Shown piece after piece: positions 10,758 to 63,937 of a DNA stretch of 64,000 nucleotides. Numbering within the stretch: the stretch's first letter is position 1; every line of letters begins with the position of its first letter. The DNA is from a bacterium. GTDB lineage: Bacteria; Patescibacteriota; Microgenomatia; UBA10105; UBA927. The notes below the pieces were generated by a model. That model was not told where the DNA came from. It worked only from the letters and a program-made list of their open reading frames with translations, and ran no database searches. The position numbers and the translations under genes are program-made. Location of the stretch: assembly GCA_021817785.1 (NCBI GenBank), contig JAKAFY010000001.1:26446-90445 (forward strand), given 5' to 3'.

Positions 10758-12277
10758 AACGCTTGAACACGTGGCGCCGTCACACGATAAAACCGAAGCT
10801 TCCGATCCGTACGGTTTCCTTTTTGGTACTCCCCGATGAGTGCCAGAGGCCATCCGGCGGGAGCCACCTGTGATTCATTCAGGATAAGATATGTTGGTCT
10901 GGACAGCGCTTCTTCCTGTATGCTGTCGGGTATCACGTTCGGCAAGGGCCAGATTCCTTTTATTTTTATATTCGGATTATCCACAAGATATATCTCGATG
11001 GAATACGGCATAAGCCCGAATGTCCCTTCCGTGTATACGTTTATCTTTTCGTGACGCACCTGTTCCCGAAGATACGACACTACTTCCGGCACGCCGCCGC
11101 CTGCCGGCCAGTCATTCATATACTGATATTGGTCGGATAACGGGATGGGTGCTGCGATCGGATTGGTGACGATCATATACGAGGTCATGGCAGCGGGACT
11201 AAGGAGGAGCACGACGAGCGCCAACCGGACCAGGGGGCGTTTGATCATATCCCACAGTTCCATGAAACTTTCCGCAGCCACAAGCAGCAGCGGGATAGTC
11301 ATAAACAAGGTAAACCGCGGATACAATATCTTGGCAAAGTTTGCCAGGGCGGCAAACGGCATCGCCCACCAGACATACAGCAGCCACCGCTCCCTCGCTT
11401 TTCCCCACCGGGTAAACAGCGGTACCAGGGTGACGACAAATACCGGCAGGGTGAGATAATTTCTCAGCCAGTCAAACATGCCCTTGAGGTTTCCCGCAAA
11501 AAAACGGAACGGCTGGTTAAGCCATTCCCGCGGGCTGAATATAAAGACGTTGTCTTTCTGCGAAACGATGTGAAAAAACGGGGATAACCGCAATACGCTA
11601 TAAAACACCTGGGACAGCACTGCCGAAACGATGACCAGTCCAGCCCATCGTGCCAGCCGGTTGAATCTGTGTTCTTTGCGCCAGTCAAACAGGATGAGGG
11701 TCAACGGCATCGCGTACAAGCTCAAAAAACCGGAACTTTTGTTGAGCATGCCGCACCCTAACACCATACCGAGGAGAAGCGCTATATCAAGCCGGACTTT
11801 CCGCACCAGAAGCACGGCCAGATACAGGCTCCAGACGGAAAACAGGGAGACCATGGAGTCATAAATCGCCATGCGGTCGTACCAAAGCGTAAACGGAATG
11901 ATCACGTATAATACGCCGGTAAACCATGACACCCGCCTGTCTCGAAAAAGTTCCCACGAAAGCACGCATACGCCGATAAGCGTACCGATCCCGGCCACCA
12001 CGGATGTCAACCGCCCCACGAACAGTGGGTCTACGCCTTTGAGTACTTTGAGTAACACCATCATGACCCAGGTAAACATCGGCTGTTTTCCGTCGGTCAG
12101 CGATATGAAGCGCCAATTGGGATCCCGCATCCCGATTTGCGACCAGCGGATGTAGATGGCTTCATCGGTAAATATAGGTAACTTCGTCAGATTCAGGAGC
12201 CGGGTAACAGCATACAGCGCGATAAGCGCTCCGAAACCAAGCAGTATGCCCCACCAAAACCGCTTTTTGTTTGCCAT
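10754..12277 (-). CDS. ArnT/PMT-family (GT39/GT83-like) membrane glycosyltransferase
   Basis: Likely start MANKKRFWWGILLGFGAL at ATG 12277, with GGAG 5 nt upstream and a TATAAT-like box. The motif LPIFTDEAIYIRWSQ is the conserved DE loop of polyprenol-phosphate-dependent GT-C enzymes. 507 aa with about 12 TM. Confidence 0.8.
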   Translation of the reverse strand: MANKKRFWWGILLGFGALIALYAVTRLLNLTKLPIFTDEAIYIRWSQIGMRDPNWRFISLTDGKQPMFTWVMMVLLKVLKGVDPLFVGRLTSVVAGIGTLIGVCVLSWELFRDRRVSWFTGVLYVIIPFTLWYDRMAIYDSMVSLFSVWSLYLAVLLVRKVRLDIALLLGMVLGCGMLNKSSGFLSLYAMPLTLILFDWRKEHRFNRLARWAGLVIVSAVLSQVFYSVLRLSPFFHIVSQKDNVFIFSPREWLNQPFRFFAGNLKGMFDWLRNYLTLPVFVVTLVPLFTRWGKARERWLLYVWWAMPFAALANFAKILYPRFTLFMTIPLLLVAAESFMELWDMIKRPLVRLALVVLLLSPAAMTSYMIVTNPIAAPIPLSDQYQYMNDWPAGGGVPEVVSYLREQVRHEKINVYTEGTFGLMPYSIEIYLVDNPNIKIKGIWPLPNVIPDSIQEEALSRPTYLILNESQVAPAGWPLALIGEYQKGNRTDRKLRFYRVTAPRVQAL

Positions 12278-25329: not shown

Positions 25330-25907
25330 ACTACGATGGCCCCCTGCCGCACAATGGTATACGGCGTCACGCTACAATCAACGACGGTTGATGCTTGTTT
25401 GACGCTGCATGCTCCGGGGACGACGTAATCTACCAACTTCATAAGCTCGGGATCCAACTGTTCGAACGTATACGGTGTCGGGCTTCCGTGAAAGTTTGCC
25501 GACGGCCCCAGTACCGGTACACCCACCCCGCGGATAAGGGCCAGTGCCGTTTCGTGGTTTGGCTGGCGGACGCCGATCGTGTCTCCGCCGCCGCGGATAG
25601 GGGAGTGGATCAACTCTTTTTTACACCGGGCGATGATCGTGAGCGCTCCCGGCCAATATGTTTTCATAAAACGTCGCACAATATCATCAGGGGAGTCGAG
25701 GTAGGAGAGTGCCATGGGTTCCGAGTCAACCAGTACCGGCGTGGCCTGCGTCAGCGGCCGCTTGCGCAGTGCAAACAACCGATCGACGGATGCGGGGCGG
25801 TCTATCCGGCACCCTATGCCAAATGCGGTATCGGTGGGATATATGACAATTCCTCCGGACATAAGCACCCGGATTGCTTCGTTGATCTGTTCAGACGTAG
25901 CCTTCAT
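25326..25907 (-). CDS. tsaC: L-threonylcarbamoyladenylate synthase (YrdC/Sua5 domain)
   Basis: AIRVLMSGGIVIYPTDTAFGIGCRIDRPASVDRLFALRKRP...ALTIIARC...SANFHGSPTP, the YrdC-domain signature. Confidence 0.85.
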   Translation of the reverse strand: MKATSEQINEAIRVLMSGGIVIYPTDTAFGIGCRIDRPASVDRLFALRKRPLTQATPVLVDSEPMALSYLDSPDDIVRRFMKTYWPGALTIIARCKKELIHSPIRGGGDTIGVRQPNHETALALIRGVGVPVLGPSANFHGSPTPYTFEQLDPELMKLVDYVVPGACSVKQASTVVDCSVTPYTIVRQGAIVV

Positions 25908-25930
25908 ATAGTATGTATCTTATACGACGT

Positions 25931-26085
25931 TCGTTACTTTGTTACTTCGTTACTTTGTTACTTCGTTACTTTGTTACTTCGTTACTTTGTTACTTCGTTA
26001 CTTTGTTACTTCGTTACTTTGTTACTTCGTTACTTTGTTACTTCGTTACTTTGTTACTTTGTCAATTTGTCACTTTGTTAATTCC
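25931..26085. repeat. tandem repeat array, 16-bp unit TCGTTACTTTGTTACT (itself two 8-mers TYGTTACT), about 8 perfect 16-bp copies plus degenerate 8-mers
   Basis: Read directly: ...tcgttactttgttacttcgttactttgttact... x8, then ttgtcaatttgtcactttgttaatt. Lies between the tsaE stop (26070) and tsaC start (25907). The degenerate end overlaps the last tsaE codons. The period is not a multiple of 3. Confidence 0.85.
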
Positions 26086-26528
26086 ATCTCTATCGTATGA
26101 CTCCCATCGGGCAGCGCCGCAAATCGTATATCCACCCGTGTATCCGGCAACAGCATGCCTAACCGCTCCGGCCATTCGATCACGACATATGCGGCGGGAT
26201 CCGTACGCATTTCGTCAAACCCCAACGCTTCGATGTCTGATGTGCCCTGCACGCGGTACAAATCCATGTGATAGAGCATGCGCGTCGTTTTCGGAATACT
26301 ATAACGTCGCACAATAATAAAGGTAGGCGAGGGCAGGCGACTGGTTATGCCAAGTCCCCTGGCCAGGCCCTGGGTAAACGTCGTTTTTCCGCTGCCTAGT
26401 TCTCCCCACAGGCACAGGACCCGGGGCGCCTCTCCCCTCTTGTCTGCTAAAAGGGTATGTCCAAGCGTCTCGCCCAGCTTCTGAGTAGCTTCGGCGCTTT
26501 TTGTAATTGTGTGCAAAGGTAATACCAT
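26070..26528 (-). CDS. tsaE: tRNA threonylcarbamoyladenosine biosynthesis ATPase TsaE
   Basis: TITKSAEATQKLGETLGHTLLADKRGEAPRVLCLWGELGSGKTTFTQGLARGLG. Walker A in the YjeE/TsaE context. Confidence 0.85.
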   Translation of the reverse strand: MVLPLHTITKSAEATQKLGETLGHTLLADKRGEAPRVLCLWGELGSGKTTFTQGLARGLGITSRLPSPTFIIVRRYSIPKTTRMLYHMDLYRVQGTSDIEALGFDEMRTDPAAYVVIEWPERLGMLLPDTRVDIRFAALPDGSHTIEMELTK

Positions 26529-26931: not shown

Positions 26932-27756
26932 TCATTCTCGTTTTATAATTTTTTTCCATACGTCTGTTTTCTGCCACGCGGTCGCAAACGAAAGCAATGC
27001 GAGTCCGCTGCCGATACACAAAAACGAAAAGACAAACGGCGATTGGCTGACCCGCGCGCCGCTTATGGTCGCCTCGTCGCTTGTCTCCGGTATCGCATCC
27101 GAGGTTTCCACACTCTCCGATGCGATTGCACTTCCCAGTATATCAGGATTTATTTGTTCCGTGGGTGACGGCGCGCCCGTCGATGACGGTGTCGCCGTGG
27201 GAGTGACGGATGGAGATGGTGTATGGGTAGCGGTGGGATTGGGCGTATTAGTAGGAGCAGTTGTAGTAGTCGGAACTGGCGTAGGCGTATGGGTAGGGCC
27301 GGTGATGGCAATAGTTACTTCCCCGCTCCACACCGAGGCGGAACTGCAGCTAGGCGTATACCGGCCTACCTTAAACAGATATTCTCCCGGGCCGTTGTAG
27401 TACGGGCTTGCCGTATCCGGCTTCACCTTCAATACCCCGCTCCAGGTCCCCTCTTTCGAAAGATCGGTTTGCAGGATTTTATAGTACTGGGTGCAGCTTC
27501 CTCCCGGCGCATTGGTCCACGTGCCGTCGTTACTCTGCGTATAGCCAAAGTAGCTTGATCCGCTGGGATAAAACGCCCCGCGCAGATAGGAGTCGGTGCT
27601 GCAGCTGGGGCAGGAAAACTGTACGGTGATTTCCGATTCCGCGTTTTCATCCAAAGTCGTAGGAACCGCGGAAAGCGAGAGCGTCTGCGTGCTCGCAGCA
27701 AGGACAAGCGGAACAAATAATTTCCCAATGACGCTGAACCATGGCAGATGGTTCAT
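26932..27756 (-). CDS. secreted surface protein with Pro/Thr-rich linker and C-terminal hydrophobic anchor
   Basis: Signal-peptide-like N-terminus (MNHLPWFSVIGKLFVPLVLAAS). Cys-containing beta domain. The linker ITGPTHTPTPVPTTTTAPTNTPNPTATHTPSPSVTPTATPSSTGAPSPT is low complexity. C-terminal FVFSFLCIGSGLALLSFATAW helix plus basic tail. Confidence 0.6.
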   Translation of the reverse strand: MNHLPWFSVIGKLFVPLVLAASTQTLSLSAVPTTLDENAESEITVQFSCPSCSTDSYLRGAFYPSGSSYFGYTQSNDGTWTNAPGGSCTQYYKILQTDLSKEGTWSGVLKVKPDTASPYYNGPGEYLFKVGRYTPSCSSASVWSGEVTIAITGPTHTPTPVPTTTTAPTNTPNPTATHTPSPSVTPTATPSSTGAPSPTEQINPDILGSAIASESVETSDAIPETSDEATISGARVSQSPFVFSFLCIGSGLALLSFATAWQKTDVWKKIIKRE

Positions 27757-27866
27757 TTGATATACCAGTGTACGGGATGTTTATGGAAAATTCTGTACGA
27801 TGGATTGCAGTACAGGTGTTGGGACGAAATCGGAACAACAATTAACGCTATCTTAAATTTTTGATT

Positions 27867-28508
27867 TTAGCCCTTAATTTGTTTCCTGAATTCATTCTTA
27901 ATATCAAGTATTAGCTTTTCATACTTATCTTTTACGGCTTTGTTTGTTTTAATAGTTGATTCTGCATCCTTTTTTGTGAATCCCAATTGCTGTGAGCTTT
28001 GAGGCGATGTGCTTCTGATATCAATAAGTTTCAGTTTTCCAAATCTAAATTGCTCAAATTGACTAAATAATTCCATTAATTTTTTGTAATGCGATTGTTC
28101 TATAAGTAGTGTATTCTCTTCAACAGCATTTTTCGTTAATCTTATCTGCTCAGAAAATGATGGGATTTTTTCAGGAGATGGGTTGTTCCAAAGCGCATCT
28201 GCCAGCTGTTTGGTTACCATTAAAATTTTCCAAAGATTATTATAGAGTTCAAATTGTTTTTCTGAGTATCTTAAAAAGAGTACTTTTGTTTTTTCCAATT
28301 CAGTTTTTGTTTTTTCTAGTTCGGTTTGATACTTATTTTTCAAATCTTCTAATCCTCGTTCATGTGAATTTTTATACTTTTCAAGTATCCCCTGAGAGAT
28401 AATTTCACCTAACCATTTTGCAATCGCAATAATTATTGCTCCAGCCCCAAAAGTGGAGATAAAAAATGCTGCCACGATATTAAATGCGCTTTGGAATGAT
28501 ACATTCAT
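27867..28508 (-). CDS. hypothetical protein, N-terminal TM plus coiled-coil (low-GC island gene A)
   Basis: ORF 27867..28541. Start at MNVSFQSAFNIVAAFFISTFGAGAIIIAIAKWLG (28508) avoids overlap with gene B. Lys/Glu-rich coiled-coil (ELEKTKTELEKTK). AT-rich codon usage unlike flanking genes. Confidence 0.5.
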   Translation of the reverse strand: MNVSFQSAFNIVAAFFISTFGAGAIIIAIAKWLGEIISQGILEKYKNSHERGLEDLKNKYQTELEKTKTELEKTKVLFLRYSEKQFELYNNLWKILMVTKQLADALWNNPSPEKIPSFSEQIRLTKNAVEENTLLIEQSHYKKLMELFSQFEQFRFGKLKLIDIRSTSPQSSQQLGFTKKDAESTIKTNKAVKDKYEKLILDIKNEFRKQIKG

Positions 28509-28510
28509 AA

Positions 28511-28867
28511 TTAATAATTTAGATTGTTTGCCCTTAACCAATCGTGTAGTTGATCGGGATCAACATTGTTAAACCCTAAATATCTGTTCTTAGTTAAATA
28601 TCCAATATGCTGCCCATTTAAATAAATTGCTGGGGGAGTACTTGTATAAGGGTTAAACGGACTTAATGAGGAATACTGACTTCCGTAGGTTCCATATTTG
28701 TTAAAAATTGATGTTGCGGAGTATTGATTCCCATAATATCCATAAGGGTTGGAAATTGATTCAGCATCAAAATTATTAAGCGAAAGTTTTCCAAGATATT
28801 GACCGTCATTAGCAAGTAAAAACGATTCATGGTTTTGAGCTTTTGCAAGGATTTGCTGAAATTCCAT
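28511..28867 (-). CDS. hypothetical protein with NPYG/Tyr-Gly-rich repeats (island gene B)
   Basis: 118 aa with SNPYGYYGNQYSATSIFNKYGTYGSQYSSLSPFNPYTSTPP repeat-like region. No family recognized. Confidence 0.45.
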   Translation of the reverse strand: MEFQQILAKAQNHESFLLANDGQYLGKLSLNNFDAESISNPYGYYGNQYSATSIFNKYGTYGSQYSSLSPFNPYTSTPPAIYLNGQHIGYLTKNRYLGFNNVDPDQLHDWLRANNLNY

Positions 28868-28885
28868 ATAATAATTTTTAAAACG

Positions 28886-29578
28886 CTAAGCCATCTCTTT
28901 ATCGTATTTTTGGGTTAATAATTCAGCTTCTATCCAGTGAGTTGTTAATTTTATCAATTCTTTTAGATTACTTATGTCTTTATCTGTCCAAGTTCGATAG
29001 TAATGAACCTCATCGTTTCCTAGCCACGCCGCTCTCTCAGTACATTTTTTAATATTTGTATCATCTATCAGAGCTAAGACAGGTGCGAGTGTCTTATATT
29101 TTTTAATTTCCTCTGCTCGTTCAGGGTATTTTACAGATAGGTAATCTTTAACTAAGTACTCCAGACTCTTCCTATAGCCTCCACCACAAACCTCATCTAA
29201 ACCCATTGATTCTGCTATATAAGCTTGATTATATATTCTTCGAAATTTAGGCGACGTCATGTTAATTTCATTAGGAAATTCAATTGGTTTAAAATACTCA
29301 GGGACTCCAACCTGGGCCAATGTAAAATAATCGCCATGACGTCCCACCTTGGAATAATATGCAATAAAATATCTCTTACATTCGTTGCGAGAACACTTAA
29401 AAACAACTTCAACTATTTCGTCATAGTCCCATAACGCACCCAAATTTTGAGAATTCTTAAATATTGGACTTGTTGGTTTTCCACACCTCCCGCAGATATC
29501 AGGAAAGTCGTTTATCGTAATTGAACCACGACTTCCTTCATTAATCTCTAACGATATCAAAGATGTATCTCTAGCCAT
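28886..29578 (-). CDS. zinc-ribbon plus DUF4145-like domain protein (island gene C)
   Basis: 230 aa. N-terminal Cys4 (CGRCGKPTSP...CSRNECKRY). C-terminal ERAAWLGNDEVHYYRTW resembles the DUF4145 R-x-GN-x-x-H core. The assignment is tentative. Confidence 0.5.
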   Translation of the reverse strand: MARDTSLISLEINEGSRGSITINDFPDICGRCGKPTSPIFKNSQNLGALWDYDEIVEVVFKCSRNECKRYFIAYYSKVGRHGDYFTLAQVGVPEYFKPIEFPNEINMTSPKFRRIYNQAYIAESMGLDEVCGGGYRKSLEYLVKDYLSVKYPERAEEIKKYKTLAPVLALIDDTNIKKCTERAAWLGNDEVHYYRTWTDKDISNLKELIKLTTHWIEAELLTQKYDKEMA

Positions 29579-29777
29579 ATAATTAGCAACATCGTACCAC
29601 TACTTAACCTAAAGTCAATTGTTTTTAAGTAATGGTTTCGCGCCGCCGCGTTAATGCGAGTCAAGGGAGCGTTCGCGCACTCGTTCAATCCTTCACATCC
29701 GTGAAAGACATCAACCCGCCACGCTGATTAGTTTTACACCTCGTCCCATAGGCTACCTCGTCCAAGTTTATTAGTTC

Positions 29778-29798
29778 GCACCCCCGGTGTGTGGGCAG
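29778..29798. repeat. GC-rich palindromic element copy 1 (variant CGCACCCCCGGTGTGTGGGCA)
   Basis: Read in the divergent C/D intergenic region. Shares the GCAC..CC..GG..GGTGTG..GGG core with copies 2-4 but has the central CCGGGGG inverted to CCCCCGG. Confidence 0.5.
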
Positions 29799-29869
29799 AT
29801 AACTCCCATAGAGGTCATATTGTTAGCAGATGAAAAGATGTAATTTAGAGCGTATAATTGCCCTTTACT

Positions 29870-30502
29870 ATGAATTACGAACGTATTTTGCCTCATACAA
29901 CCGAACGGGAGATTGTTCGTGAAGCTGCTTCCAAGAGTCCATTACATTTGGTTTTCGCGGGCGCATCAAGTACAGGAAAAACAACAATGATGGAGATATT
30001 GAGTACGCAGATTGGAGTACCAACCATACCGGAAACGGCACGCTCAATCATAAAAGAACAGGGTTGGAAACGTGAAGACTTAGACAATGCCGCCACACTG
30101 TATGATCTTCAGCAGCGGATTGTAACCAAACAGTACGAACAAGAAATTGTGCTCGCACACGTACCACATTGTTCTGATCGAAGTATCTTTGATCCCCTAG
30201 TGTACGCAGAAATGTATCTCGGGCTGGAAGCGATGGAAAAACTCAAACAGATGCCGGAATATTCCGGGATAGATACCATATATAAAAATGCGCTATTTAT
30301 CGTTATCGAACCAAACGAACGCACATTTCGTAATGATGGGGTTCGGATTTTACCGGATATTCAATTCGCACGGGAATTTAATAACCGCATTAAACGGATT
30401 TTAGAGGACTATAAATTGCCCTACATAGAAATACACTCGGCCTCTATACACGAGCGCGAGGAGGAAATCTATAGAAAGCTGGCACAAAAACTTCTTTTGT
30501 GA
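29870..30502 (+). CDS. P-loop NTPase (AAA_28/NadR-like ATPase or kinase) (island gene D)
   Basis: ORF 29858..30502 starts on TTG inside a TATAAT box; ATG at 29870 (MNYERIL) is more likely. Walker A LVFAGASSTGKTTMMEIL and a Walker B-like LFIVIEPNE. Confidence 0.6.
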   Translation: MNYERILPHTTEREIVREAASKSPLHLVFAGASSTGKTTMMEILSTQIGVPTIPETARSIIKEQGWKREDLDNAATLYDLQQRIVTKQYEQEIVLAHVPHCSDRSIFDPLVYAEMYLGLEAMEKLKQMPEYSGIDTIYKNALFIVIEPNERTFRNDGVRILPDIQFAREFNNRIKRILEDYKLPYIEIHSASIHEREEEIYRKLAQKLLL

Positions 30503-30510
30503 GCTTGTTT

Positions 30511-30532
30511 CGTACACCGGGGGTGTGGGTGA
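30511..30532. repeat. GC-rich palindromic element copy 2 (CGTACACCGGGGGTGTGGGTGA)
   Basis: Nine nt after the stop of island gene D. Stem CACACC / GGTGTG around GGG. Confidence 0.7.
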
Positions 30533-30547
30533 ATAGTTTCTTCATTT

Positions 30548-30964
30548 TTGACTTATAATAATTTCCGGTGTACTATTTGTCCGATGGCACGCGTATATCA
30601 CACCGGCGGAAAAGAAGATACTATAATCGGATTTACAGCTGTCGAGTTTAACGCTAATAATCACACCCTCCGAATAACAACTGACTCACCCAAATCCCTC
30701 GCCAACTGGATACGGAGAGACCTCCGTAGAGGTGATATATCTCTTTGGCTCGCATCCGAAGACAAAGCTGATTTAGCGTACACATCAGATATATTAAAAC
30801 GGCGGGTTATTACTCGTGATCGAGGTTCATTGGCATTTCGCCTACGGGAATCAGGGACGGCAAAAGTCACAATATACCCTTCACGAATGAGCCGGAAACA
30901 AATTAAACCCATTGAGTTACCTGTATTCGCAGAGTTATTTTTTAGACCGTCGCACGACGCCTGA
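30548..30964 (+). CDS. hypothetical protein (island gene E)
   Basis: 138 aa ORF with no recognizable motifs. Alternative start at MARVYHTGG (30584). Confidence 0.4.
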   Translation: MTYNNFRCTICPMARVYHTGGKEDTIIGFTAVEFNANNHTLRITTDSPKSLANWIRRDLRRGDISLWLASEDKADLAYTSDILKRRVITRDRGSLAFRLRESGTAKVTIYPSRMSRKQIKPIELPVFAELFFRPSHDA

Positions 30965-31016
30965 AGTTAGATACGTACAATCTTTATTACGCGTTCTCGA
31001 AAATGAACATCCACTA

Positions 31017-31424
31017 TTAGGCGGTGGTGCGTACCATTTTTTGGGGGAAATTTATCCCAAGAAAATAATCAGTAGGTTTATGTGACGCTAGGAGTGCTTT
31101 GATTTGATCCACAACCGGCAGTTTTAATGACTTAATATCAAATGGCGTTCTCATGTCTAAGTGGATGCTGGCAAACGACATCGGGTGAAGCAGATCCGCA
31201 GCATCAGCGGTTAATGTTTCTAACAGCGGGCGTTCTTGAGACTTGGCCATCAATGTAACGTTAACGTATTTATGTACTTGATACGGCTTTACTACTTTCC
31301 AGCCTTTTGAGTGCGCTACGCGATCTTCGGTGGTTCTAAACAGTAAATCTCCCTTCTGGTTCATTTCAAGAGAGGCTTCTTTAATCATGGAAGAAATTAT
31401 ACCTATTTTTGAAGAAAATGTCAA
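31017..31424 (-). CDS. hypothetical protein (island gene F)
   Basis: 135 aa ORF. Possible internal start MIKEASLEMNQ. No recognizable motifs. Confidence 0.4.
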   Translation of the reverse strand: MTFSSKIGIISSMIKEASLEMNQKGDLLFRTTEDRVAHSKGWKVVKPYQVHKYVNVTLMAKSQERPLLETLTADAADLLHPMSFASIHLDMRTPFDIKSLKLPVVDQIKALLASHKPTDYFLGINFPQKMVRTTA

Positions 31425-31442
31425 CTATAGGCTATATATTTT

Positions 31443-31497
31443 ACGCACACCGGGGGTGTGGGTGAGTAGGCATTACATCGACAGCCGGTCGACTTCG
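31443..31497. repeat. direct repeat copy 3: palindromic element ACGCACACCGGGGGTGTGGGTGA plus a duplicated gene 3' end (..ACATCGACAGCCGGTCGACTTCG)
   Basis: About 52-bp repeat nearly identical to 31813..31864. Its minus-strand reading gives ..HEVDRLSM-stop, a remnant of the C-terminal codons (..FEVDRLSI-stop) of the gene at 31840..33042. Confidence 0.75.
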
Positions 31498-31557
31498 TGA
31501 AAATTTCATTCTTACAAAAGCCCAGCGTGTGAGGTTGATCATTTCGAACAGGAACTA

Positions 31558-31770
31558 TTAATGACCTCCAAACGGCCAATGTAATCCCTTTTTTCTAGTT
31601 TTCTGTTCATTCTTCTTCCAATCTTCGCCCGTTTCACCAAATGGATGACATGGCATAGGACACACAACACTTCCACCAGGAATTTTATCCAGATTTGGTT
31701 TTTTGACCTTTAATTTAGTTCCGTCACCCCAATCTACTTCTTTTACTTTAGTTTCGTTTTTACCACCCAT
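31558..31770 (-). CDS. hypothetical small protein (island gene G)
   Basis: ORF 31558..31818. Likely start MGGKNETKVKEVDWG (31770). Lys-rich with a CPMPCHPFG motif. Flanked by the ~52-bp direct repeats. Confidence 0.35.
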   Translation of the reverse strand: MGGKNETKVKEVDWGDGTKLKVKKPNLDKIPGGSVVCPMPCHPFGETGEDWKKNEQKTRKKGLHWPFGGH

Positions 31771-31812
31771 AAGAAGAGAGATTATAACAGAATTAGTTAT
31801 TAAACAAAAATA

Positions 31813-31864
31813 ACGCACACCGGGGGCATGGGTGAAAAATTATATTGACAGCCGGTCGACTTCG
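31813..31864. repeat. direct repeat copy 4: palindromic element ACGCACACCGGGGGCATGGGTGA plus the authentic 3' end of the C39-like peptidase gene
   Basis: Overlaps the stop codon (31840) of the PcsB-like gene. Same ~52-bp unit as copy 3. Confidence 0.75.
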
Positions 31865-33042
31865 AAGACGCTTCCCAGGGAATAGCTATCCGTAAACACT
31901 TTGTCGTGTCCCCCGTCCTGATAGGGATCGTTCATGATGTACTGGCCGTTGGAGTAGGATTTTATGACGACAAAGTGCGTATCAAATGGTCCATAATTAA
32001 TTCCAACAATAACTGGACCATCTTTAACCAAATCAGGACTTAATTTATATCCGACACTAAATCTATTAATAGTTACTCCCTTTACGCTTATAAAGCCTTT
32101 AAGTAACATTGCTGTTCCAACGGAAAAATTACTTGGATCAGATACGGCGATATCTAGTGGCTTAATATCGGTGCGTCCTAAATGACTTGCTACCATGGCA
32201 ACAGATGTAACAAGACATCCGACACGAGCAATACTACATGACCCATTACAATCGTTTCTCCCGTTTATTAATACATTCCCCCACTGGCTGTCCCGCTGGT
32301 TGTAATAGCATCCCCAACTATCGCAGTGCGTTTGTCCCGACAGCAATCCGCCGCCCTGGCTGGTCGCAAAGCTTGCAAATCCTGCCAGCTGCGCCCGCGC
32401 GGCAGCCAGTAAGCTCTGGTATTTGCTCTCGTCATTTTGGGTTTGGGACAGAAGCGACTGTTTCTCGCTTTTTTGCTGGGCCAGCAAATTGGTGCGCTGC
32501 ACGAGCTGTTTATTGAGCGCTTCCTGCTCTATGCGCTTTTTCTCCCGCATGTCTTTCCGGTCGTTATAGTCGTTTTGGGTAAGCTGCAGCTGTTTATACA
32601 GCTGGGTGTCTTCTTCCTGCAGTTGCATCAGGTACTTTGCCCTGGTAATCATCTCGGTAAAGTCGGAACTAAACAGCAGCCACCCGAACTGCGACGCGGT
32701 CGACCGTTTGTACGACTGCGGTATGCGGTACAGCACCATCTGCAGCCGTTGGGTTTTCAGATCCTCCAGCTTGCCGATTTCGCCGTCCAGCTGGTTTATC
32801 TCTCCGTCCAGCGCCGTAATTTTCCGTTTGGTATCGTCTATCTGCAGACTCGTCAGCGTAATCTGGGAATTGAGAAGCGTGATTTGTTTGGACAGGGTGT
32901 CTTTCTGTGTCTGCAGTCCCGCAATGGTTTGCTCCAGTGTTGCGATCGTCGTCTGCAAATCCGTCTGGGAATCCGCAAAAACCCTCACGGACACAAGCGT
33001 GAGTATAAAGACGATGACGCCGATCTGAAGAATTTTTTTCAT
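31840..33042 (-). CDS. secreted coiled-coil protein with C-terminal C39-like (papain-fold) cysteine peptidase domain; PcsB/EnvC-like FtsEX-associated hydrolase candidate
   Basis: 400 aa with signal peptide (MKKILQIGVIVFILTLVSVRVFA), a long Q/L-rich coiled-coil (aa 25-230), and a C-terminal domain. That domain carries HCDSWGCYYNQ...CSIARVGCLVTSVAMVASHLG...GINYGPFDTHFVVIKSY...NDPY, matching the Peptidase_C39_2 Cys/His arrangement. Sits immediately downstream of ftsX. Confidence 0.7.
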   Translation of the reverse strand: MKKILQIGVIVFILTLVSVRVFADSQTDLQTTIATLEQTIAGLQTQKDTLSKQITLLNSQITLTSLQIDDTKRKITALDGEINQLDGEIGKLEDLKTQRLQMVLYRIPQSYKRSTASQFGWLLFSSDFTEMITRAKYLMQLQEEDTQLYKQLQLTQNDYNDRKDMREKKRIEQEALNKQLVQRTNLLAQQKSEKQSLLSQTQNDESKYQSLLAAARAQLAGFASFATSQGGGLLSGQTHCDSWGCYYNQRDSQWGNVLINGRNDCNGSCSIARVGCLVTSVAMVASHLGRTDIKPLDIAVSDPSNFSVGTAMLLKGFISVKGVTINRFSVGYKLSPDLVKDGPVIVGINYGPFDTHFVVIKSYSNGQYIMNDPYQDGGHDKVFTDSYSLGSVFEVDRLSI

Positions 33043-33064
33043 ACGGGCGCGTACGTAGATATGG

Positions 33065-33958
33065 TTACTTTAAGTAACGGATAAGTGCGGTCCAGCTCCC
33101 CACGGCGCCGAGAATAAATCCCAATACCACGGTGCTCACAAAAAATCCGAATGCGGACAGCAAGAACACGGGGCTTACGAGACTGGCAAACAGCAGGTGA
33201 AGCATGGGAATCATGCCCAAAAATCCGTACAACAACGGCCGCATCCACGCGATAACGCCGATCAAAATGAGAGACGCGATAGCCGCGCCCACGGCGCCAT
33301 AGGTGCCGCCCTCTACGATAAACGGCGCGCGTATGGTCCACGGCGACGCACCGACGAGTGTCAGAATTTCTATCTCATCGCGTTTGAGCGCTACCTTCAT
33401 CGCGATTACCGTCCCGATGATAAGCAGCGAATCTATGGCCAGAAGCAGTGCCAATGTGCCGCCCACCAGGCGGATAGCATTGGTCCAGTTGAGTAGCGAC
33501 TCTACCACATCGCGCTGGTAGACCACTTCATCCACTCCCTCGCTTCCCTGGATAAGCGGCGTCAACTGCGAAAGATACTGCGGGTCGGTCGCAGACACTT
33601 CGAGGGAGGCGGGCAATATGTCCGCCGTCACCATCTCGAGAAGCAGCGGATCGTTTTTGTTTTGCTGCTGGTAGATGGACAGTGCCTCGTCTTTGGAAAT
33701 AAATTTCGTGGAGGCGACTTTGCCGGTGGCTTCCAGTTTCTTTTTCAGCGCATCCGCTTCCACCTGCCCTGCTTTCGGCGTAAAAAAGACGGTAATCTGG
33801 GGCTTTCCTTCAAAAAATCCCAGGATGGAGACCGAGGCCATGCTTGCCAGGAAAAATACGCCGCCGACCAGAAACGTCAGGAACATAGTAAGCGTCGCTG
33901 CCAAGGCCTGGTTGGGAGATCTGCGGATATGGGTGCGTACTTCTCTAATGAGCGGCAT
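33065..33958 (-). CDS. ftsX: cell division ABC transporter permease FtsX
   Basis: 297 aa with N-terminal TM, a large extracytoplasmic loop and 3 C-terminal TM helices. Position after ftsE. Confidence 0.85.
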   Translation of the reverse strand: MPLIREVRTHIRRSPNQALAATLTMFLTFLVGGVFFLASMASVSILGFFEGKPQITVFFTPKAGQVEADALKKKLEATGKVASTKFISKDEALSIYQQQNKNDPLLLEMVTADILPASLEVSATDPQYLSQLTPLIQGSEGVDEVVYQRDVVESLLNWTNAIRLVGGTLALLLAIDSLLIIGTVIAMKVALKRDEIEILTLVGASPWTIRAPFIVEGGTYGAVGAAIASLILIGVIAWMRPLLYGFLGMIPMLHLLFASLVSPVFLLSAFGFFVSTVVLGFILGAVGSWTALIRYLK

Positions 33959-34676
33959 CGTGTTTCCCTCCTTTGGGTTCTTTTTTCTCGTGTTTGGTCA
34001 GATGATAATGTCCTTTTTCCTCGTCGCGGACGACATGTCCGTGTTCTATGGTGATCGTACGGCGTTTCAGCCGGTTGACGACGTCCGCATTATGGCTGGC
34101 GACGATGACGGTCGTGCCCAGGCGGTTTATTTCTTCCAGTATGTCGATGATGCCCCAGGACGTTTCCGGGTCCAGGTTGCCCGTCGGTTCGTCGGCAAGC
34201 AGCATTTTCGGACCGCCCACGATTGCGCGTGCGATACTCACCCGTTGCATCTCCCCGGCAGAAAGCTGTATGGGGAACACGTCTTTTTTATCCAAAAGGC
34301 CGACCAGTTCCAGGACGTTTTTCACGCCGTCCGGTATGTCTTTGACGGGTTTGCCCAGAATTTCCAGCACCATCGCCACATTTTCGTAGACGGTGCGGTC
34401 CATAAGCAGTTTGAAATCCTGAAATACGATACCCACTTTGCGCCGCAGCAGATGGATGTTTTTGGGCGTTAACTTTTTCAGGTCGTATTCATCGATCACG
34501 ATATTACCCGAGGTAGGCAAAAGGTCGCGGATGAGCAGACGCAGGATAGTCGTTTTGCCGGAGCCGGATGGGCCGATAAGGAACACAAATTCACCATCCG
34601 GTATTTCTACGGACAGGTCAACGATTCCCGGAATTTTCCCCGGATAAAATTTGGAGACGTCAGTAAAGCGAATCAT
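33945..34676 (-). CDS. ftsE: cell division ATP-binding protein FtsE
   Basis: GPSGSGKTT Walker A, LSAGEMQRVSIARA signature and [11 protein letters not shown] Walker B. MIRFTDVSKFYPG N-terminus typical of FtsE. Confidence 0.9.
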   Translation of the reverse strand: MIRFTDVSKFYPGKIPGIVDLSVEIPDGEFVFLIGPSGSGKTTILRLLIRDLLPTSGNIVIDEYDLKKLTPKNIHLLRRKVGIVFQDFKLLMDRTVYENVAMVLEILGKPVKDIPDGVKNVLELVGLLDKKDVFPIQLSAGEMQRVSIARAIVGGPKMLLADEPTGNLDPETSWGIIDILEEINRLGTTVIVASHNADVVNRLKRRTITIEHGHVVRDEEKGHYHLTKHEKKEPKGGKHDAAH

Positions 34677-34700
34677 CCCAGATACCAGATACCAATACCG

Positions 34701-35228
34701 TTACTGTACTTCCAGCCGCTCGACATCCATAAGCCATGGAGCCTTGAGGGCCTGTAACGTAGCGCCGCACACTTTTACTTTCAGGCCGACGTATTGATCG
34801 AGGTCGATGATGGAAGAGATAAGGTACGCCGTCTGCGACGGGCCGCCCGGACGGGTGAGATGGTGTGTCCCCTCTCCGTCTATGCCGCCTTTGTCGAGCG
34901 TGCCGACCGGACAGTTGGTAAACTTGGATGCATCCTGCACTCCGGCTACCTTTGCCGGATTGCCCGCCGTGCCGGTGGTGACGACCATGGCAGCGCCGGA
35001 CGTGCTTTTATGCGACAGGATATAGCCGGTCCCCAACCCGAAAAGTATAAGGACGACATATACTGCCAAAATGACCATGGAATTCTGTTTCATCTGCTGT
35101 ACGGGATGTTTGGCGTCGCGCGCATCGATCGGACGGACAAGCTCGCTGGGTTGTGTATTCATAGATAGTTCGGCGGGGTCCGTTGTGGGACGCACCGGTT
35201 TCGGTTTCATATCTTTTCTCATTATCAC
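34701..35228 (-). CDS. hypothetical membrane-anchored protein
   Basis: 175 aa with basic N-terminus and one TM (MVILAVYVVLILFGLGTGYIL), then a soluble domain. Located between prfB and ftsE. Confidence 0.5.
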   Translation of the reverse strand: MIMRKDMKPKPVRPTTDPAELSMNTQPSELVRPIDARDAKHPVQQMKQNSMVILAVYVVLILFGLGTGYILSHKSTSGAAMVVTTGTAGNPAKVAGVQDASKFTNCPVGTLDKGGIDGEGTHHLTRPGGPSQTAYLISSIIDLDQYVGLKVKVCGATLQALKAPWLMDVERLEVQ

Positions 35229-35231
35229 GGC

Positions 35232-36242
35232 TTACGAATATTTTTTCAAGTATGCGAGTATAAAGTCTTCGAGATTCCCGTCCAGCACGCTTTCGGTGTC
35301 GGATGTTTCGTATTCCGTACGCAGGTCTTTGACCATGTGGTACGGGTGCAGCACGTAGGAGCGGATCTGGTTACCCCAGCCCGGCGTTTTGTATACGCCG
35401 CGCAAATCTTTCTGCTGCGCGATACGCTTCTGATTTTCCATTTCCCATAGTTTGGCCCGCAGCATTTTCAGCGCGAACTCGCGGTTCTGCCCCTGGTACC
35501 GCTGCGCCTGGCTGGCGACGATGATGCCGGTAGGCTTATGCTTCAAGCGCACGGCGGTAGAAACCTTGTTGACGTTTTGGCCGCCTTTGCCGCCGCTCCG
35601 ATAAAATTCCCATTCCAGGTCTTCTTCGCGTATGTCCGATCCTGCGTCTTCTTCGATGATCGGCAGCACTTCCACCATGGCAAACGACGTCTGACGCAGT
35701 TTGTCCGCATTAAACGGAGACTGGCGCACGAGGCGGTGCACCCCGGCTTCTGCTTTGAGGAATCCGAATGCGTACCGGCCCGTCACTTCAAACGTAATGC
35801 TTTTTATGCCTGCTTCGTCTCCCGGCGTATAGTCCATTTCTTCCGCTTTCCAGCCTTTGATTTCTATATAGCGCGTGTACATGCGATAGAGCATCTGCGT
35901 CCAGTCCATGGCTTCCGTCCCACCCTGGCCGGCGTGGAGTGCGATGATGGCGTTTCCTTTGTCATACGGCCCCGAAAGATAGAGTGCAAATTCCAGCCGG
36001 GTGATTTCTTTGGCAAGTGCCGCTTCATCGCCAAGCTCGACCATGAGCTCAAACTCTTCCCCTTCGGCAAGTTCCTTTTGCAGGGAAGAAAGTTCCTGCA
36101 TCTTTTTGGCGGCGCGTTCGGGCTCTTTCCAAAAATCCTCATGCATGGTTTCGGCTTCCAGTTCGCGGATGTCGTGGCGCATGCCGTCCAGGTTCAGTTT
36201 CGCAAGCAATTCTGCTGCACGTGCTTTCAGTGCTTCATCCAT
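35232..36242 (-). CDS. prfB: peptide chain release factor 2
   Basis: SPF tripeptide (RQSPFNAD) and GGQ ([11 protein letters not shown]). Uninterrupted ORF, with no programmed +1 frameshift site (no CTTTGAC) upstream. Confidence 0.9.
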
Positions 36243-57922: not shown

Positions 57923-57980
57923 AAAGCTCAAATATCAAAATCCAAATGACAAACCAAATCTAAAATCCAAATCGTCAGAC

Positions 57981-58349
57981 TTATTTATTCAGAATAGCAG
58001 AGAAAATCAAAACCAGCTCATGCACTTCTTTCCATAGTAGCCGACACGTCTCTACGCCCTGCGGTACCGCTTTAGATATCATGCGTAGCCAGTGCATCGT
58101 TTCTTTACTTTCCTTCTTGCACAACGCTATCTTAAATCGAAAATCCTTTTTAGAATCAGCGGCATCAGCTTCCATGTAGTTTGCCCCAATACTTGTCGCT
58201 GACCGGACAAGTTGGTTGATGAGCGGAGAATTTATTGGCGAAGCCGGGACAGTGCTGGCAAATTCGATAACGCGCTCGCCGAATACGGCCGTTCGTTCCT
58301 GTAAATCATACTTTTTTGAGGGCTTTGAACTTTGAGCTTGATTTGTCAT
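57981..58349 (-). CDS. four-helix-bundle protein (23S rRNA intervening-sequence protein family, TIGR02436-like)
   Basis: Start MTNQAQSSKPSKKYDLQERTAVFGERVIEFASTVP...SIGANYMEADAADSKKDFRFKIALCKKESKETMHWLRMI. Confidence 0.7.
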   Translation of the reverse strand: MTNQAQSSKPSKKYDLQERTAVFGERVIEFASTVPASPINSPLINQLVRSATSIGANYMEADAADSKKDFRFKIALCKKESKETMHWLRMISKAVPQGVETCRLLWKEVHELVLIFSAILNK

Positions 58350-58372
58350 TTGAGCGTTGACCTTTGAGCGTA

Positions 58373-58975
58373 TTATAATCCGAGTTCTTCGTGATGGTCC
58401 TGCATGGTCTTCAGCGTGAGGGCAATAAAATCTGCAAGCGGAATGTGCAGCTTTTCTTCGCATTGGGCGATCTGTTCACGTTCTACCGCAGCGGCAAATG
58501 CCTTTTGTTTCCATTTCTTTAACACTGCCTCTACGGTCACCTGTTGTAATCGACTCTTTCCTTGCCCCTCCGAAGCTTCATGCGAAGGGAGGTCGGGACG
58601 AACAAGCGCAACAGCGACGATAAAGCCAGTCAATTCATCGACAGTCTCCAACGCCCATTCCATATCTCCTTCGAGCTCTGCCAGATGCGTGAGTTTTCGG
58701 TTATGCGACATCATGGCATGAACAATAGGCCCATCTGTTTCCCCCGTATCATTAAGCCACGCAAGCGTGTGCTTGGTGTGCATATCCGGCGTGTCTTTGG
58801 TTTCTTCCCAGTCTGCGTCGTGGAGAAGCCCCAATGTCTCCCACATATCGGGGTTTCCCCCCAGCTTTTCTGCCAGCGCCCGCATGGCAAATCCTACCGC
58901 ATACATGTGCCGGCGGAGATTCTGGTTTTGGGTGTGTGCGTGGAGCAAATCGAGTGCCTGATTCTTCGTGATCAT
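58373..58975 (-). CDS. HD-domain phosphohydrolase (YqeK/HDIG-like)
   Basis: Start MITKNQALDLLHAHTQNQNLRRHMYAVGFAMRALAEKLGG...LGLLHDADWE (H...HD...D). Confidence 0.65.
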   Translation of the reverse strand: MITKNQALDLLHAHTQNQNLRRHMYAVGFAMRALAEKLGGNPDMWETLGLLHDADWEETKDTPDMHTKHTLAWLNDTGETDGPIVHAMMSHNRKLTHLAELEGDMEWALETVDELTGFIVAVALVRPDLPSHEASEGQGKSRLQQVTVEAVLKKWKQKAFAAAVEREQIAQCEEKLHIPLADFIALTLKTMQDHHEELGL

Positions 58976-61695: not shown

Positions 61696-61947
61696 ATGTT
61701 CTTTGTTTATATACTTAAATCGATTAAGTCAGGAACTTATTACATAGGATGCACAAACGATATCGAGAGAAGATTAAAAGAGCATAATTCAGGTATTAGC
61801 ATCTACACAAAAACCGATAAACCATGGAAATTATGTTACAATGAAGCGTTCAATTCGTTATCGGAAGCAAGAAAAAGAGAAAATCAAATTAAATCGTGGA
61901 AAAAACGTAAAGCGATTGAGAAATTAATACAGGCCCCCATCGTCTAG
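61696..61947 (+). CDS. GIY-YIG nuclease-family small protein (UPF0213-like)
   Basis: MFFVYILKSIKSGTYYIGCTNDIERRLKEHNSG. AT-rich. The last 5 codons overlap the tRNA-Glu 5' end. Confidence 0.6.
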   Translation: MFFVYILKSIKSGTYYIGCTNDIERRLKEHNSGISIYTKTDKPWKLCYNEAFNSLSEARKRENQIKSWKKRKAIEKLIQAPIV

Positions 61948-62006
61948 CGGCCTAGGACGGTTCCTTCTCAAGGAACAAATCGTCGGTCCGAATCCGACTG
62001 GGGGTA
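61933..62006 (+). tRNA. tRNA-Glu (anticodon CUC)
   Basis: Hand-folded cloverleaf: acceptor GCCCCCA/TGGGGGT, D-stem GTCT/GGAC, anticodon stem GTTCC/GGAAC with loop TTCTCAA (anticodon CTC), T-stem GTCGG/CCGAC with loop TCCGAAT, discriminator A. Confidence 0.8.
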
Positions 62007-62014
62007 CATACAAT

Positions 62015-62046
62015 AAATCGCTTGGCAATGCCGAGCGATTTTTTGT
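62015..62046 (+). terminator. rho-independent terminator after tRNA-Glu
   Basis: AATCGCTTGGC-AAT-GCCGAGCGATT hairpin followed by TTTTTTG. Confidence 0.55.
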
Positions 62047-62405
62047 ATACGCCAGACGGTGAGGAACGACCAACGGTGCGTCGACTGGTTCGTTAGCGAG
62101 CTAATTCTGATTGGCGAGCTTACGAACCATCGATCCTCGAAGGGGAAATCCGACTGGAGGCGAACCGCGTACGGTGCGCGCCGCTTTGAACGAAGTGAAA
62201 AGCAAGTACTCTCGGAGTAAATCCGACATGGCTATCGTGTTGAATCATCAATCTGTCAACACCCGGTGTTGGTAAAGCTAAAATTTGGAGTATGAATTAT
62301 GGCCAACTCAAGGCTAATTCCAAATGTATAAATAGTACGATTTTGTAAAATAGATTACATCGGAATATAACAGTTAATGATATATTATAAGACACTTAAG
62401 TCATC

Positions 62406-62639
62406 ATGGTTATGTGTTTAAAACGGATTGAAAAAAATAATGCAATTGATGCATTGGAAAAGGCCCTTGAAGCTCACGCGGCAGCGTATCAGGCCGGAGG
62501 ATGGGGAGCCTTATCCCCATACGCACAAAAATTGCATGAGCTAGATGAGATAGCATTTCGATCAGCACGCGCTCCAAAAGGTGGTAAGCAAGCTCGACTT
62601 TTGCGTGGATACCAAGAGGTGCGCCGTCGATTCTTCTAA
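62406..62639 (+). CDS. hypothetical small protein
   Basis: 77 aa ORF in the AT-rich region downstream of the tRNA. No motifs. Confidence 0.3.
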   Translation: MVMCLKRIEKNNAIDALEKALEAHAAAYQAGGWGALSPYAQKLHELDEIAFRSARAPKGGKQARLLRGYQEVRRRFF

Positions 62640-62708
62640 TGCCATTTTGGCTTCTACTTCCACGGACATCAGACGAAGATCACACAACATCCAATTCCGT
62701 TGGCATCT

Positions 62709-63347: not shown

Positions 63348-63470
63348 TTACCACTATATACCGCAGTGAAAAAAAGTTCCAATTCGTTCCAAACTGATGT
63401 ACTACATACCATTCGGTCTACGGCTATAACGCAAATTTCACCCATACACTGAAGGCGCAGAGCTCCAGAA

Positions 63471-63812
63471 CTATGAAGATGTATGTACTCCCCTAGCGCC
63501 CATATACACCATGACCAACAACACAATTGCTTCTATATGATACCCATCCGGACGAAGAAGTCTTTGCATAAATGCGGTATTTTGATGAAAGACTACATGA
63601 AATACGACGGAAATGGGCAACGTAAACCACAGCCACGCTGTCCGGGAAACACGTACGGAGAATTTTGCAGCCAGTCGGGACAGGATCGGTGCCAAAATAT
63701 AGATCCCTATATAGGAGACGACGACATCAAAAATCGCATACGGACCAATCCGGAAGTGCCGCAGATATGTTATATCTATCACCCGTATAGTGTACCAGAT
63801 GCTTTCCTCCAC
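63471..63812 (-). CDS. hypothetical membrane protein
   Basis: 113 aa, hydrophobic. No motifs. Confidence 0.3.
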   Translation of the reverse strand: MEESIWYTIRVIDITYLRHFRIGPYAIFDVVVSYIGIYILAPILSRLAAKFSVRVSRTAWLWFTLPISVVFHVVFHQNTAFMQRLLRPDGYHIEAIVLLVMVYMGARGVHTSS

Positions 63813-63937
63813 AAGGGATACTAATCAATGTAAGTCTAAAATATTCTATTCAATCGCTTCCATATCATCGTGTATACAAAAATTTGTATTTTATATCACA
63901 CATTACTACACTGGATAATAGAAAGGGGTACCACGTT

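Follow-up and report, generated by a model that had tools for sequence, protein, structure and literature searches.

Why does one short GC-rich palindrome recur within a small low-GC island of a Microgenomates (CPR) bacterium: as a recombination site, as an operator or as an RNA hairpin? Bacteria of the candidate phyla radiation rely on other cells, and their genomes measure about 1 Mb. To our knowledge, their mobile elements and gene-capture mechanisms are poorly described. We analyzed the locus within a window of 64 kb, the whole stretch of DNA under study (64,000 nucleotides). A repeat search of this window returned three strong copies and one degenerate copy of a 29-nt GC-rich imperfect palindrome:

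29774..29802, plus strand: motif copy 1, degenerate with an altered spacer, 69% identical to the reference; the AAA_28 gene starts about 70 nt downstream
30508..30536, plus strand: motif copy 2, the reference copy; 8 nt past the stop of the AAA_28 gene
31441..31469, plus strand: motif copy 3, the consensus copy, 90% identity to the reference; between the 70-aa and 123-aa genes
31811..31839, plus strand: motif copy 4, 76% identity to the reference, TAACGCACA-CCGGGGG-CATGGGTGAAAAA; chromosome/island joint, 4 nt past the peptidase stop

The four palindromes claimed in the initial annotation were thus recovered by repeat grouping, and the three strong ones again by a search with the 20-mer CACACCGGGGGTGTGGGTGA. 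This 20-mer is found at 31446-31465 (no mismatch), 30513-30532 (one mismatch) and 31816-31835 (two mismatches), all on the plus strand, with no match in 100 dinucleotide-preserving shuffles. A position weight matrix built from the four copies detected nothing further above 12 bits in the 64 kb. The copies span 2.1 kb, and none occurs elsewhere among the approximately 60 intergenic regions of the window. Within the window, the motif is confined to 29774-31839. A fifth, degenerate copy at ~27811-27835, at the far edge of the island, looked plausible by eye and failed the matrix scan.

The motif consists of two 9-nt arms, TTACGCACA and TGTGGGTGA, separated by the 7-nt spacer CCGGGGG. The spacer is identical in copies 2-4 and the arms are variable; the only arm with a strong deviation is the outermost, chromosome-adjacent CATGGGTGA of copy 4. 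Copy 3 contains a perfect 6-bp stem (CACACC GGG GGTGTG). The flanks of the motif are asymmetric (TwwCG... and ...GGGTGArwAr), and copies 2-4 share a single chromosomal orientation with neighboring genes pointing both ways. Copy 1 had been described as carrying an inverted center. This wording is acceptable because the exact 13-mer CACACCGGGGGTG is common to copy 1, on the opposite strand, and the other copies; in direct register, however, 16 of 22 positions are identical as well, and the orientation of copy 1 is ambiguous.

The copies lie in an insertion of 4.0 kb which starts at the stop codon of an FtsEX-linked, C39-like peptidase gene. Its features are as follows:

27811..31839, no strand assigned: the whole low-GC insertion, 38.6% GC vs 52% in the flanks; missing from related lineages
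27867..29578, minus strand: block D, three genes of 230, 118 and 213 aa; 35% GC; far side without the motif
29830..30502, plus strand: cassette C, gene for an AAA_28 / NadR-type kinase-like ATPase (29870-30502), preceded by a promoter-like site (29830-29858)
30548..31424, no strand assigned: cassette B, a 123-aa near-ORFan gene and a convergent 126-aa ORF
30584-30964, plus strand: the 126-aa ORF of cassette B, missed by gene callers, with its own promoter-like site (30548-30576)
31017-31388, minus strand: the 123-aa gene of cassette B, with a perfect TTGACA-17-TATAAT promoter (31396-31424)
31472..31497, minus strand: relic of the peptidase gene end (final 26 nt, 24/26 identical, relic stop codon included); adjoins motif copy 3
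31558..31789, minus strand: cassette A, coding for a 70-aa ORFan protein; the extended -10 box TGTTATAAT (31781-31789) lies 10 nt ahead of the ATG
31839..31864, minus strand: genuine 3' end of the peptidase gene, partner of the relic; together with copy 4 a repeat unit of ~57 nt
31840..33042, minus strand: target gene, encoding a CwlO-like hydrolase of 400 aa with coiled coils and a Peptidase_C39_2 domain; ftsE and ftsX lie directly upstream

The peptidase gene, ftsX and ftsE border the island on one side, and a 274-aa gene, VanZ and TsaE on the other. The cassettes measure 0.37-0.93 kb, with a GC content of 35-42% (vs 52%), and have promoters of their own, unlike classical integron cassettes. 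Cassette C is oriented opposite to the remaining island genes. The 70-aa and 123-aa proteins are orphans, for which an exhaustive HMMER search gave one 42%-identical match. The AAA_28 protein matched the NadR kinase domain weakly in a PDB sequence search, which was uninformative for the other proteins, and had no match among viral contigs; the island DNA had none in the phage and plasmid collections. The intergenic region 29585-29815 gave no fold signal (z = +0.7 and -1.1).

Comparison with seven related lineages places the motif at an edge of the insertion. Homology ends 0-6 nt beyond the peptidase stop codon and resumes at window positions 27760-27809, just upstream of the 274-aa gene; the motif is absent from the corresponding loci of all seven lineages. 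The spot is empty in two relatives (L176 and L177) and holds different cargo in the others, among them L174, L178, L187 and L202, which identifies it as an insertion hotspot. L174 carries an 88-nt relic of the peptidase gene end with 15 differences, all synonymous; therefore, foreign DNA with a peptidase 3' end has entered this spot before. The inserts of the related lineages have no comparable flanking repeats, and lineage-specific hairpins directly follow the peptidase stop in these genomes. Two independent assemblies break at most 6 nt apart at the left edge of copy 2 and read through the other copies; one of the two is a mosaic strain or an assembly chimera. No excised form or alternative cassette order was seen, the gene order being identical in every contig that carries island proteins.

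At the chromosomal joint the peptidase gene end itself is duplicated. Cassette A is bracketed by a direct repeat of ~57 nt, in which the terminal 26 nt of the peptidase gene are joined to the motif by a short spacer. The alignment of the relic scores 42, compared with a maximum of 24 in 500 shuffles. This duplication of copies 3 and 4 together with the gene end reads as a classic attL/attR signature. [quoted passage not shown] Three of the copies had been said to follow a stop codon immediately. This holds at genuine stops for copies 2 and 4; the stop at copy 3 is that of the relic. The statement that the motif marks every cassette boundary was too broad, since the far island end (~27810) is motif-free, as are the joints within the three-gene block 27867-29578.

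Of the three functions suggested initially, a recombination site delimiting cassettes is the best supported, given the homology edge, the 57-nt duplication and the fixed orientation. The hotspot, the relic in L174, the spacer shared by copies 2-4, the low-GC orphan cargo and the assembly breaks at copy 2 likewise speak for it. We tentatively take the motif to represent att-type junction sites from the serial insertion of small promoter-bearing cassettes, with a recombinase that acted in trans or was lost. From the same features we infer the following course of events. Small gene cassettes with their own promoters would have been inserted one after the other by site-specific recombination, at a site which lies just past the FtsEX-linked peptidase gene and overlaps its 3' end. 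With every insertion, the gene-adjacent site would be recreated and a further copy deposited beyond the new cassette. Outward from the peptidase gene, the cassettes would thus alternate with the sites, copy 4 preceding cassette A, copy 3 lying between A and B, copy 2 between B and C, and copy 1 after C. Copies 4 and 3, the newest joint, would then have retained the full duplication of ~57 nt and older joints the 29-nt core alone, with the oldest (copy 1) decayed. The 9-nt inverted arms and the asymmetric 7-nt spacer would correspond to the layout of a tyrosine-recombinase core site, and the deviant outer arm CATGGGTGA of copy 4 resembles the B-type arm expected in a hybrid attL. This argument from arms and spacer carries no statistical weight because there are only four copies from one lineage. 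As with CIMEs and CALINs, the recombinase would act from outside the island or have been lost. In addition, the hairpin probably works as a transcription stop or insulator, copy 4 being the likely terminator of the peptidase gene. Several observations count against recombination: no recombinase was found among the island proteins or the 30 other window ORFs scanned with Pfam, neither an excised nor a rearranged form turned up in the contigs, the joints are uneven, the far edge has no motif and the inserts of the relatives are not flanked by repeats.

The strongest of the alternatives, on balance unlikely, is that the motif is an RNA hairpin, i.e. a terminator, insulator or 3'-end stabilizer between transcription units, whose copies arose passively as homologous or illegitimate recombination stacked DNA from the corresponding locus in other strains. 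On the minus strand of copy 4 the hairpin is followed by CGTTATTTTT, and a terminator scan picks up this site right past the peptidase stop. The initial annotation had excluded a canonical terminator on the grounds that no U-tract follows. That is true of copies 1-3, whereas a T-tract (CGTTATTTTTGTTT) is present on the minus strand of copy 4, which the scan rates as terminator-like, so that the stem-loop with U-tract after a gene end which defines an intrinsic terminator is seen at this one copy. All four stem transitions keep the pairing through G-U wobble on the strand that is transcribed into the copy (minus for copy 4, plus for copies 2 and 1). The minimum free energy folds agree with this wobble-preserved pairing, for which we estimate a chance of about 1 in 16 by our own count. 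Moreover, the mosaic L003 suggests that the region is transferred through homologous recombination in the core genes on its flanks, and the peptidase stops of the relatives are likewise directly trailed by hairpins. However, the T-tract is confined to copy 4, the stems are short (6 bp) with unremarkable fold z-scores (-0.6 to -2.5), and copy 1 has no upstream gene on either strand. The asymmetric flanks keep one chromosomal orientation regardless of the direction of the upstream gene. Hairpins of comparable size are frequent in the window (20, mostly inside ORFs by coordinates), and a hairpin as such is therefore no signal. Finally, the identical 29-nt sequences beside unrelated ORFan genes would still require a copying mechanism.

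An operator shared by the cassette promoters, as had also been suggested, is improbable. Here the motif would be bound by an island-encoded dimeric DNA-binding protein that co-regulates these promoters. The core is indeed a 6-3-6 palindrome (CACACC-GGG-GGTGTG), and every copy lies upstream of a promoter-like site on either strand, with the palindrome centers at approximately -49, -63, -66 and -79 from the inferred starts (our own count). In addition, the 230-aa island protein, which has one distant relative among viral contigs, matches phrog_1305, annotated as 'DNA binding protein' (E = 1.9e-38). The distances are variable, however, without overlap with a -35 or -10 box; one half-site is broken in copy 4, and the conserved sequence runs asymmetrically past the palindrome. 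None of the island proteins has a helix-turn-helix or other regulator domain, and the structure models of the 123-aa and 230-aa proteins (pLDDT of 43 and 36, respectively) were too poor for use. The duplicated peptidase 3' end is left unexplained by an operator.

Still less probable are miniature non-autonomous transposable elements (REP/RAYT-like or IS200/IS605 PATE-like), mobilized by a transposase encoded elsewhere, of which the copies would be ends or hairpins. Their intergenic location beside stop codons and their GC-rich, imperfectly palindromic sequence would fit, and the arms ...CACA and TGTG... could be viewed as CA/TG termini around a short GC core. Against this, no further copies exist in the approximately 60 intergenic regions of the 64 kb or in the related lineages, and no Y1/HUH transposase is encoded among the scanned ORFs (island and 30 further window ORFs). 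We also scanned three public collections (596 Gb, which do not contain the source assembly) with the query ACACCGGGGGNNTGGGTGA, for which ~70 matches are expected by chance. Single hits at chance level were obtained in unrelated, mostly high-GC organisms (87 in genome contigs, 77 in metagenome contigs and 2 in viral contigs), and none of the fetched loci contained a second copy. A dispersed REP or BIME element is disfavored because copies are lacking elsewhere in the 64 kb and in the related loci, and no multi-copy locus occurs in the collections. Of the REP-like stabilizer proposed initially, a local role as an RNA hairpin may still apply.

A degenerate integron cassette array with the motif as attC, which would account for small, mostly single-gene ORFan units with palindromic sites in one orientation and no integrase nearby (cf. 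PMC4889954), is very far-fetched and appears effectively refuted by the box search: 27700-32000 contains no RYYYAAC...GTTRRRY box pair on either strand (regular expression; shuffle mean 1.1) and no isolated R box lies within 90 nt of a copy, the sites measure 25-29 nt instead of the usual >=55 nt, no IntI gene was found, the 30 further ORFs have no Phage_integrase match, the cassettes bring their own promoters and the island has no Rfam match at E <= 5.

We also considered and rejected Tn7-like ends (suggested by the TGTGGG within the motif, but the copies occur singly, in direct orientation and at distances of hundreds of bp) as well as iterons, parS sites and DNA-uptake sequences (incompatible spacing and copy number).

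Overall, the hairpin most likely marks repeated site-specific insertion, either as its site or as the scar left behind. Should the joints be active recombination sites, they would form a minimal cassette-stacking system outside the integron family, and the locus would be a concrete site for tracing the enzyme. If they are nothing more than scars, the spot behind the ftsEX-hydrolase operon is still documented as a conserved insertion hotspot, usable for tracking strain-level gene flux in Microgenomates. More speculatively, and we think this rather unlikely, Microgenomates may possess an integron-like cassette capture of their own. A 25-29 bp hairpin site (9-7-9, CCGGGGG) and an unlinked putative recombinase would stack promoter-bearing, leaderless, mostly orphan cassettes behind a cell-division hydrolase gene, at a spot serving as a clade-wide capture hotspot. 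The literature searched contained no account of an integron or cassette system specific to CPR bacteria.

Among known systems, intrinsic terminators are matched by the minus strand of copy 4, a GC-rich hairpin and T-tract directly past a stop codon. They differ from copies 1-3, which have no T-tract, and sequence identity would be unexpected between the terminators of unrelated genes. REP and BIME elements are likewise GC-rich imperfect palindromes just past stop codons; they are dispersed in tens to hundreds of copies, in contrast to four within 2.1 kb. The pdif modules of Acinetobacter plasmids and IMEX are Xer-dependent; small sets of genes are bounded there by imperfect-palindrome sites of ~28 bp, built as arm, spacer and arm, and the recombinase is encoded elsewhere in the genome. 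By analogy, the island motif may be regarded as a similar arm-spacer-arm palindrome bounding small gene modules, with copies that are direct instead of alternating in orientation. The dif site itself has an 11-6-11 layout with a conserved XerD arm and lies at the replication terminus. We rejected it here: the GC-rich motif is by eye unlike the AT-rich dif/XerD arm, and the cumulative GC skew falls steadily across the island without a switch of sign, so the island is not the terminus.

CALINs, integron cassette arrays without an integrase (PMC4889954), resemble the locus as a short array of single-gene, database-orphan units with imperfect palindromes in one orientation and no neighboring integrase. 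The differences are sites of 25-29 nt without R''/R' boxes, promoters within the cassettes, one inverted cassette and no attI or Pc. In tandem accretion, as in CIMEs and the ICESt1/ICESt3-related islands at fda of Streptococcus thermophilus, att-flanked segments without integration genes stack at a gene 3' end; the gene end is duplicated, and new insertions enter the att site that contains it (PMC5704250). The island resembles these in that its units, which have no integration genes, are stacked behind a conserved gene whose 3' end has been duplicated; it is also missing from related genomes at the equivalent site. It differs in its units of 0.37-0.93 kb in place of several kb, in the gene-end relic at one joint only, in having no ICE, IME or integrase nearby, and in its Microgenomates host.

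The GC content of the window drops from ~52% to 32–43% across 28–32 kb, directly after the stop codon of an FtsEX-linked, C39-like peptidase gene whose homologues carry the source names Gottesmanbacteria or Microgenomates, which places the host in the Microgenomates group of the CPR. In seven related lineages with a 71–80% identical peptidase, the gene order is prfB, a 170-aa gene, ftsE, ftsX, the peptidase gene, a 250–287-aa gene and then tsaE. The placement of tsaE refers to those relatives whose contigs extend that far, and the 250–287-aa gene was not seen in locus L202, which has only 0.7 kb downstream. Nucleotide homology of the relatives to the window ends 0–6 nt beyond the peptidase stop codon and restarts at 27760–27809; positions 27811–31839 are therefore a 4.0-kb insertion. 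The spot is empty in two relatives (L176 and L177, ~80 bp between the flanking genes), and four others (L174, L178, L187 and L202) each contain different small genes there. It is thus an insertion hotspot. Eight assemblies or samples contain the same array with identical gene order; it is therefore no assembly artefact. Cassettes A, B and C, in this order from the peptidase gene, occupy the intervals between the motif copies. The features of the array are as follows.

29774–29802: motif copy 1; beyond it, a three-gene block (GC 35%)
30508–30536: motif copy 2
31441–31469: motif copy 3
31811–31839: motif copy 4
31840–33042, minus strand: peptidase gene
Cassette A (nearest the peptidase gene): 70-aa gene, TGTTATAAT 10 nt upstream of the ATG
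Cassette B: 123-aa gene with a perfect TTGACA-17-TATAAT promoter
Cassette B, 30584–30964, plus strand: second ORF (126 aa), TTGACT-17-TACTAT promoter-like site, convergent with the 123-aa gene
Cassette C: AAA_28, NadR-kinase-like ATPase gene, opposite strand

The recurring GC-rich palindrome described in the initial annotation is real. A repeat search returned a 29-nt unit in four copies, with distances of 734, 933 and 370 nt between successive starts. The 20-mer CACACCGGGGGTGTGGGTGA occurs on the plus strand at 31446 (no mismatch), 30513 (one) and 31816 (two), with no match in 100 dinucleotide-preserving shuffles. Scanning both strands of the 64 kb with a PWM derived from all four copies revealed no further copy scoring above 12 bits. 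The conserved unit (~29 nt) reads TwwCGyACA-CCGGGGG-yrTGGGTGArwAr, and its core CACACC-GGG-GGTGTG comprises a 6-bp stem and a 3-nt loop. When the flanks are counted in, TTACGCACA and TGTGGGTGA form the arms (symmetric at 7/9 positions). Between them lies the asymmetric 7-nt centre CCGGGGG, which is invariant in copies 2–4, whereas the arms vary; the most deviant arm is CATGGGTGA on the chromosome-facing side of copy 4. The layout is probably arm-spacer-arm. Copies 2–4 have one orientation in common. Copy 1 is degenerate (16/22 identity to the others in direct register) and in an alternative register shares an exact 13-mer with them on the opposite strand, its orientation being ambiguous because the core is palindromic.

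No motif was detected in the seven relatives with up to 6 mismatches in 22 allowed; it belongs to the insert of this lineage. A pattern scan gave single hits, mostly from high-GC organisms: 87 in 185,579 species-representative genomes, 77 in JGI metagenome contigs and 2 in IMG/VR, against a chance expectation of ~70 per 596 Gb. Since these numbers are near chance and no fetched hit locus contained a second copy, the motif, as far as the 64 kb and these collections show, is not a generic REP element, as had been considered.

Positions 31472–31497, beside copy 3, match the peptidase gene's actual end (31839–31864) at 24 of 26 positions, relic stop codon included (score 42, null maximum 24). Copies 3 and 4 are therefore both part of a longer direct repeat of ~57 nt (gene end, 4–7 nt, motif) which flanks the 70-aa gene. 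No such relic was found at copies 2 and 1. In L174 the 3' end of that lineage's peptidase gene is present twice, as a direct repeat (88 nt, 83% identity, L174 positions 11108–11335), with 52 nt containing the palindrome CAACCCG-T-CGGGTTG in between. All 15 differences between these copies are synonymous by hand translation, so the second end must derive from a functional gene of another lineage. With this repeat, a relative shows its own, independent signature of insertion at the same hotspot.

A local recombinase is absent: none was found among the island proteins or 30 further ORFs of the window, which are housekeeping genes, as are the syntenic neighbours in the relatives. AAA_28 is the only Pfam domain above the curated cut-off among the island proteins. 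In PADLOC the sole results were two marginal hits, both for the AAA_28 protein, and all NCBIfam hits remained below threshold. In PHROGs the AAA_28 protein matched kinase families, and a 230-aa island protein matched phrog_1305, which carries the annotation 'DNA binding protein'. A comparison with 5.8 billion proteins yielded essentially no homologues of the 70-aa and 123-aa proteins, and the 126-aa ORF is uncalled in every public assembly. Throughout the window many host genes have a TATAAT-like -10 box a few nt upstream of the start codon and few have a Shine-Dalgarno-like sequence, which suggests that mRNAs with a short leader or none are widespread. The island genes share this start style; their donors were therefore probably related organisms or their elements.

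Elsewhere in the window, the interval between the Sua5-like and TsaE genes contains an 8-nt unit (TTCGTTAC / TTTGTTAC) repeated in tandem ~25 times (25898–26107). Several independent assemblies break here (contig L001 ends at 25925 and L002 at 25943, and L192 starts at 26033). A 46-nt inverted repeat (57926–58369, 72% complementary) surrounds a 23S_rRNA_IVP family ORF (57981–58463). Directly after tRNA-Glu (61933–62007) the GC content falls to 41–43%, and an Mrr_cat restriction endonuclease ORF is located at 62709–63347; the region 61933–64000 is possibly another islet, again of low GC and next to a tRNA gene.

We tentatively regard the motif copies as att-type junctions left by serial site-specific insertion at the peptidase gene end. 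The recombination site proposed in the initial annotation is favoured by the direct repeats, the gene-end duplication and the fixed orientation, whereas no recombinase was found, and both recombination at the motif and the order of insertions are what we infer. Cassettes would have been inserted one after another at the gene end by a recombinase that acts in trans or has since been lost. The main alternative, a terminator or insulator function as an RNA hairpin, appears less probable, and the two roles are mutually compatible. Copy 4 is terminator-like on the minus strand, so the earlier statement that the motif is no canonical terminator does not hold for this copy. All four stem transitions leave the stem paired through G-U on the strand that is transcribed locally, for which the probability by chance is about 1 in 16 (counted post hoc). 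Against this alternative stand the lack of T-tracts at copies 1–3 and the asymmetric flanks, whose orientation on the chromosome stays the same whatever the gene direction. Weaker than both readings are an operator, which is unlikely, and a miniature transposable element, which is more doubtful still; an attC site failed the box test and is highly improbable.

Contig L003 (SRR13240876; window 30515–36242) matches the window at 100% identity across 4.7 kb, from 35253 to 30515, covering the 175-aa gene, ftsE, ftsX, the peptidase gene and cassettes A and B. Past 35253 (prfB, zip, fur) identity is just 46–84% in 250-nt bins, the switch falling within the final 22 nt of prfB. This mosaic reflects either a chimeric assembly or a recent transfer between diverged lineages by homologous recombination. 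L003 terminates inside copy 2 (30515), and L192 (SRR13241953), arriving from the other side, terminates at 30509, just short of it; both read through the remaining copies. These ends would fit heterogeneity at that joint, but a chimeric assembly or an effect of coverage is also possible. The evidence comes from one lineage, in which no recombination product was observed.

With respect to known systems, REP or dif identity was rejected for the array, and it is no member of the integron family, since the defining attC features were tested and not found. New here would be integrase-free cassettes bounded by att sites of a new, short type in a CPR genome; the pattern is clean, and its host group is under-studied. 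In its working the array comes closest to CIME or CALIN-type arrays, and it resembles CIME accretion (PMC5704250) in the proposed serial insertion at a gene end.
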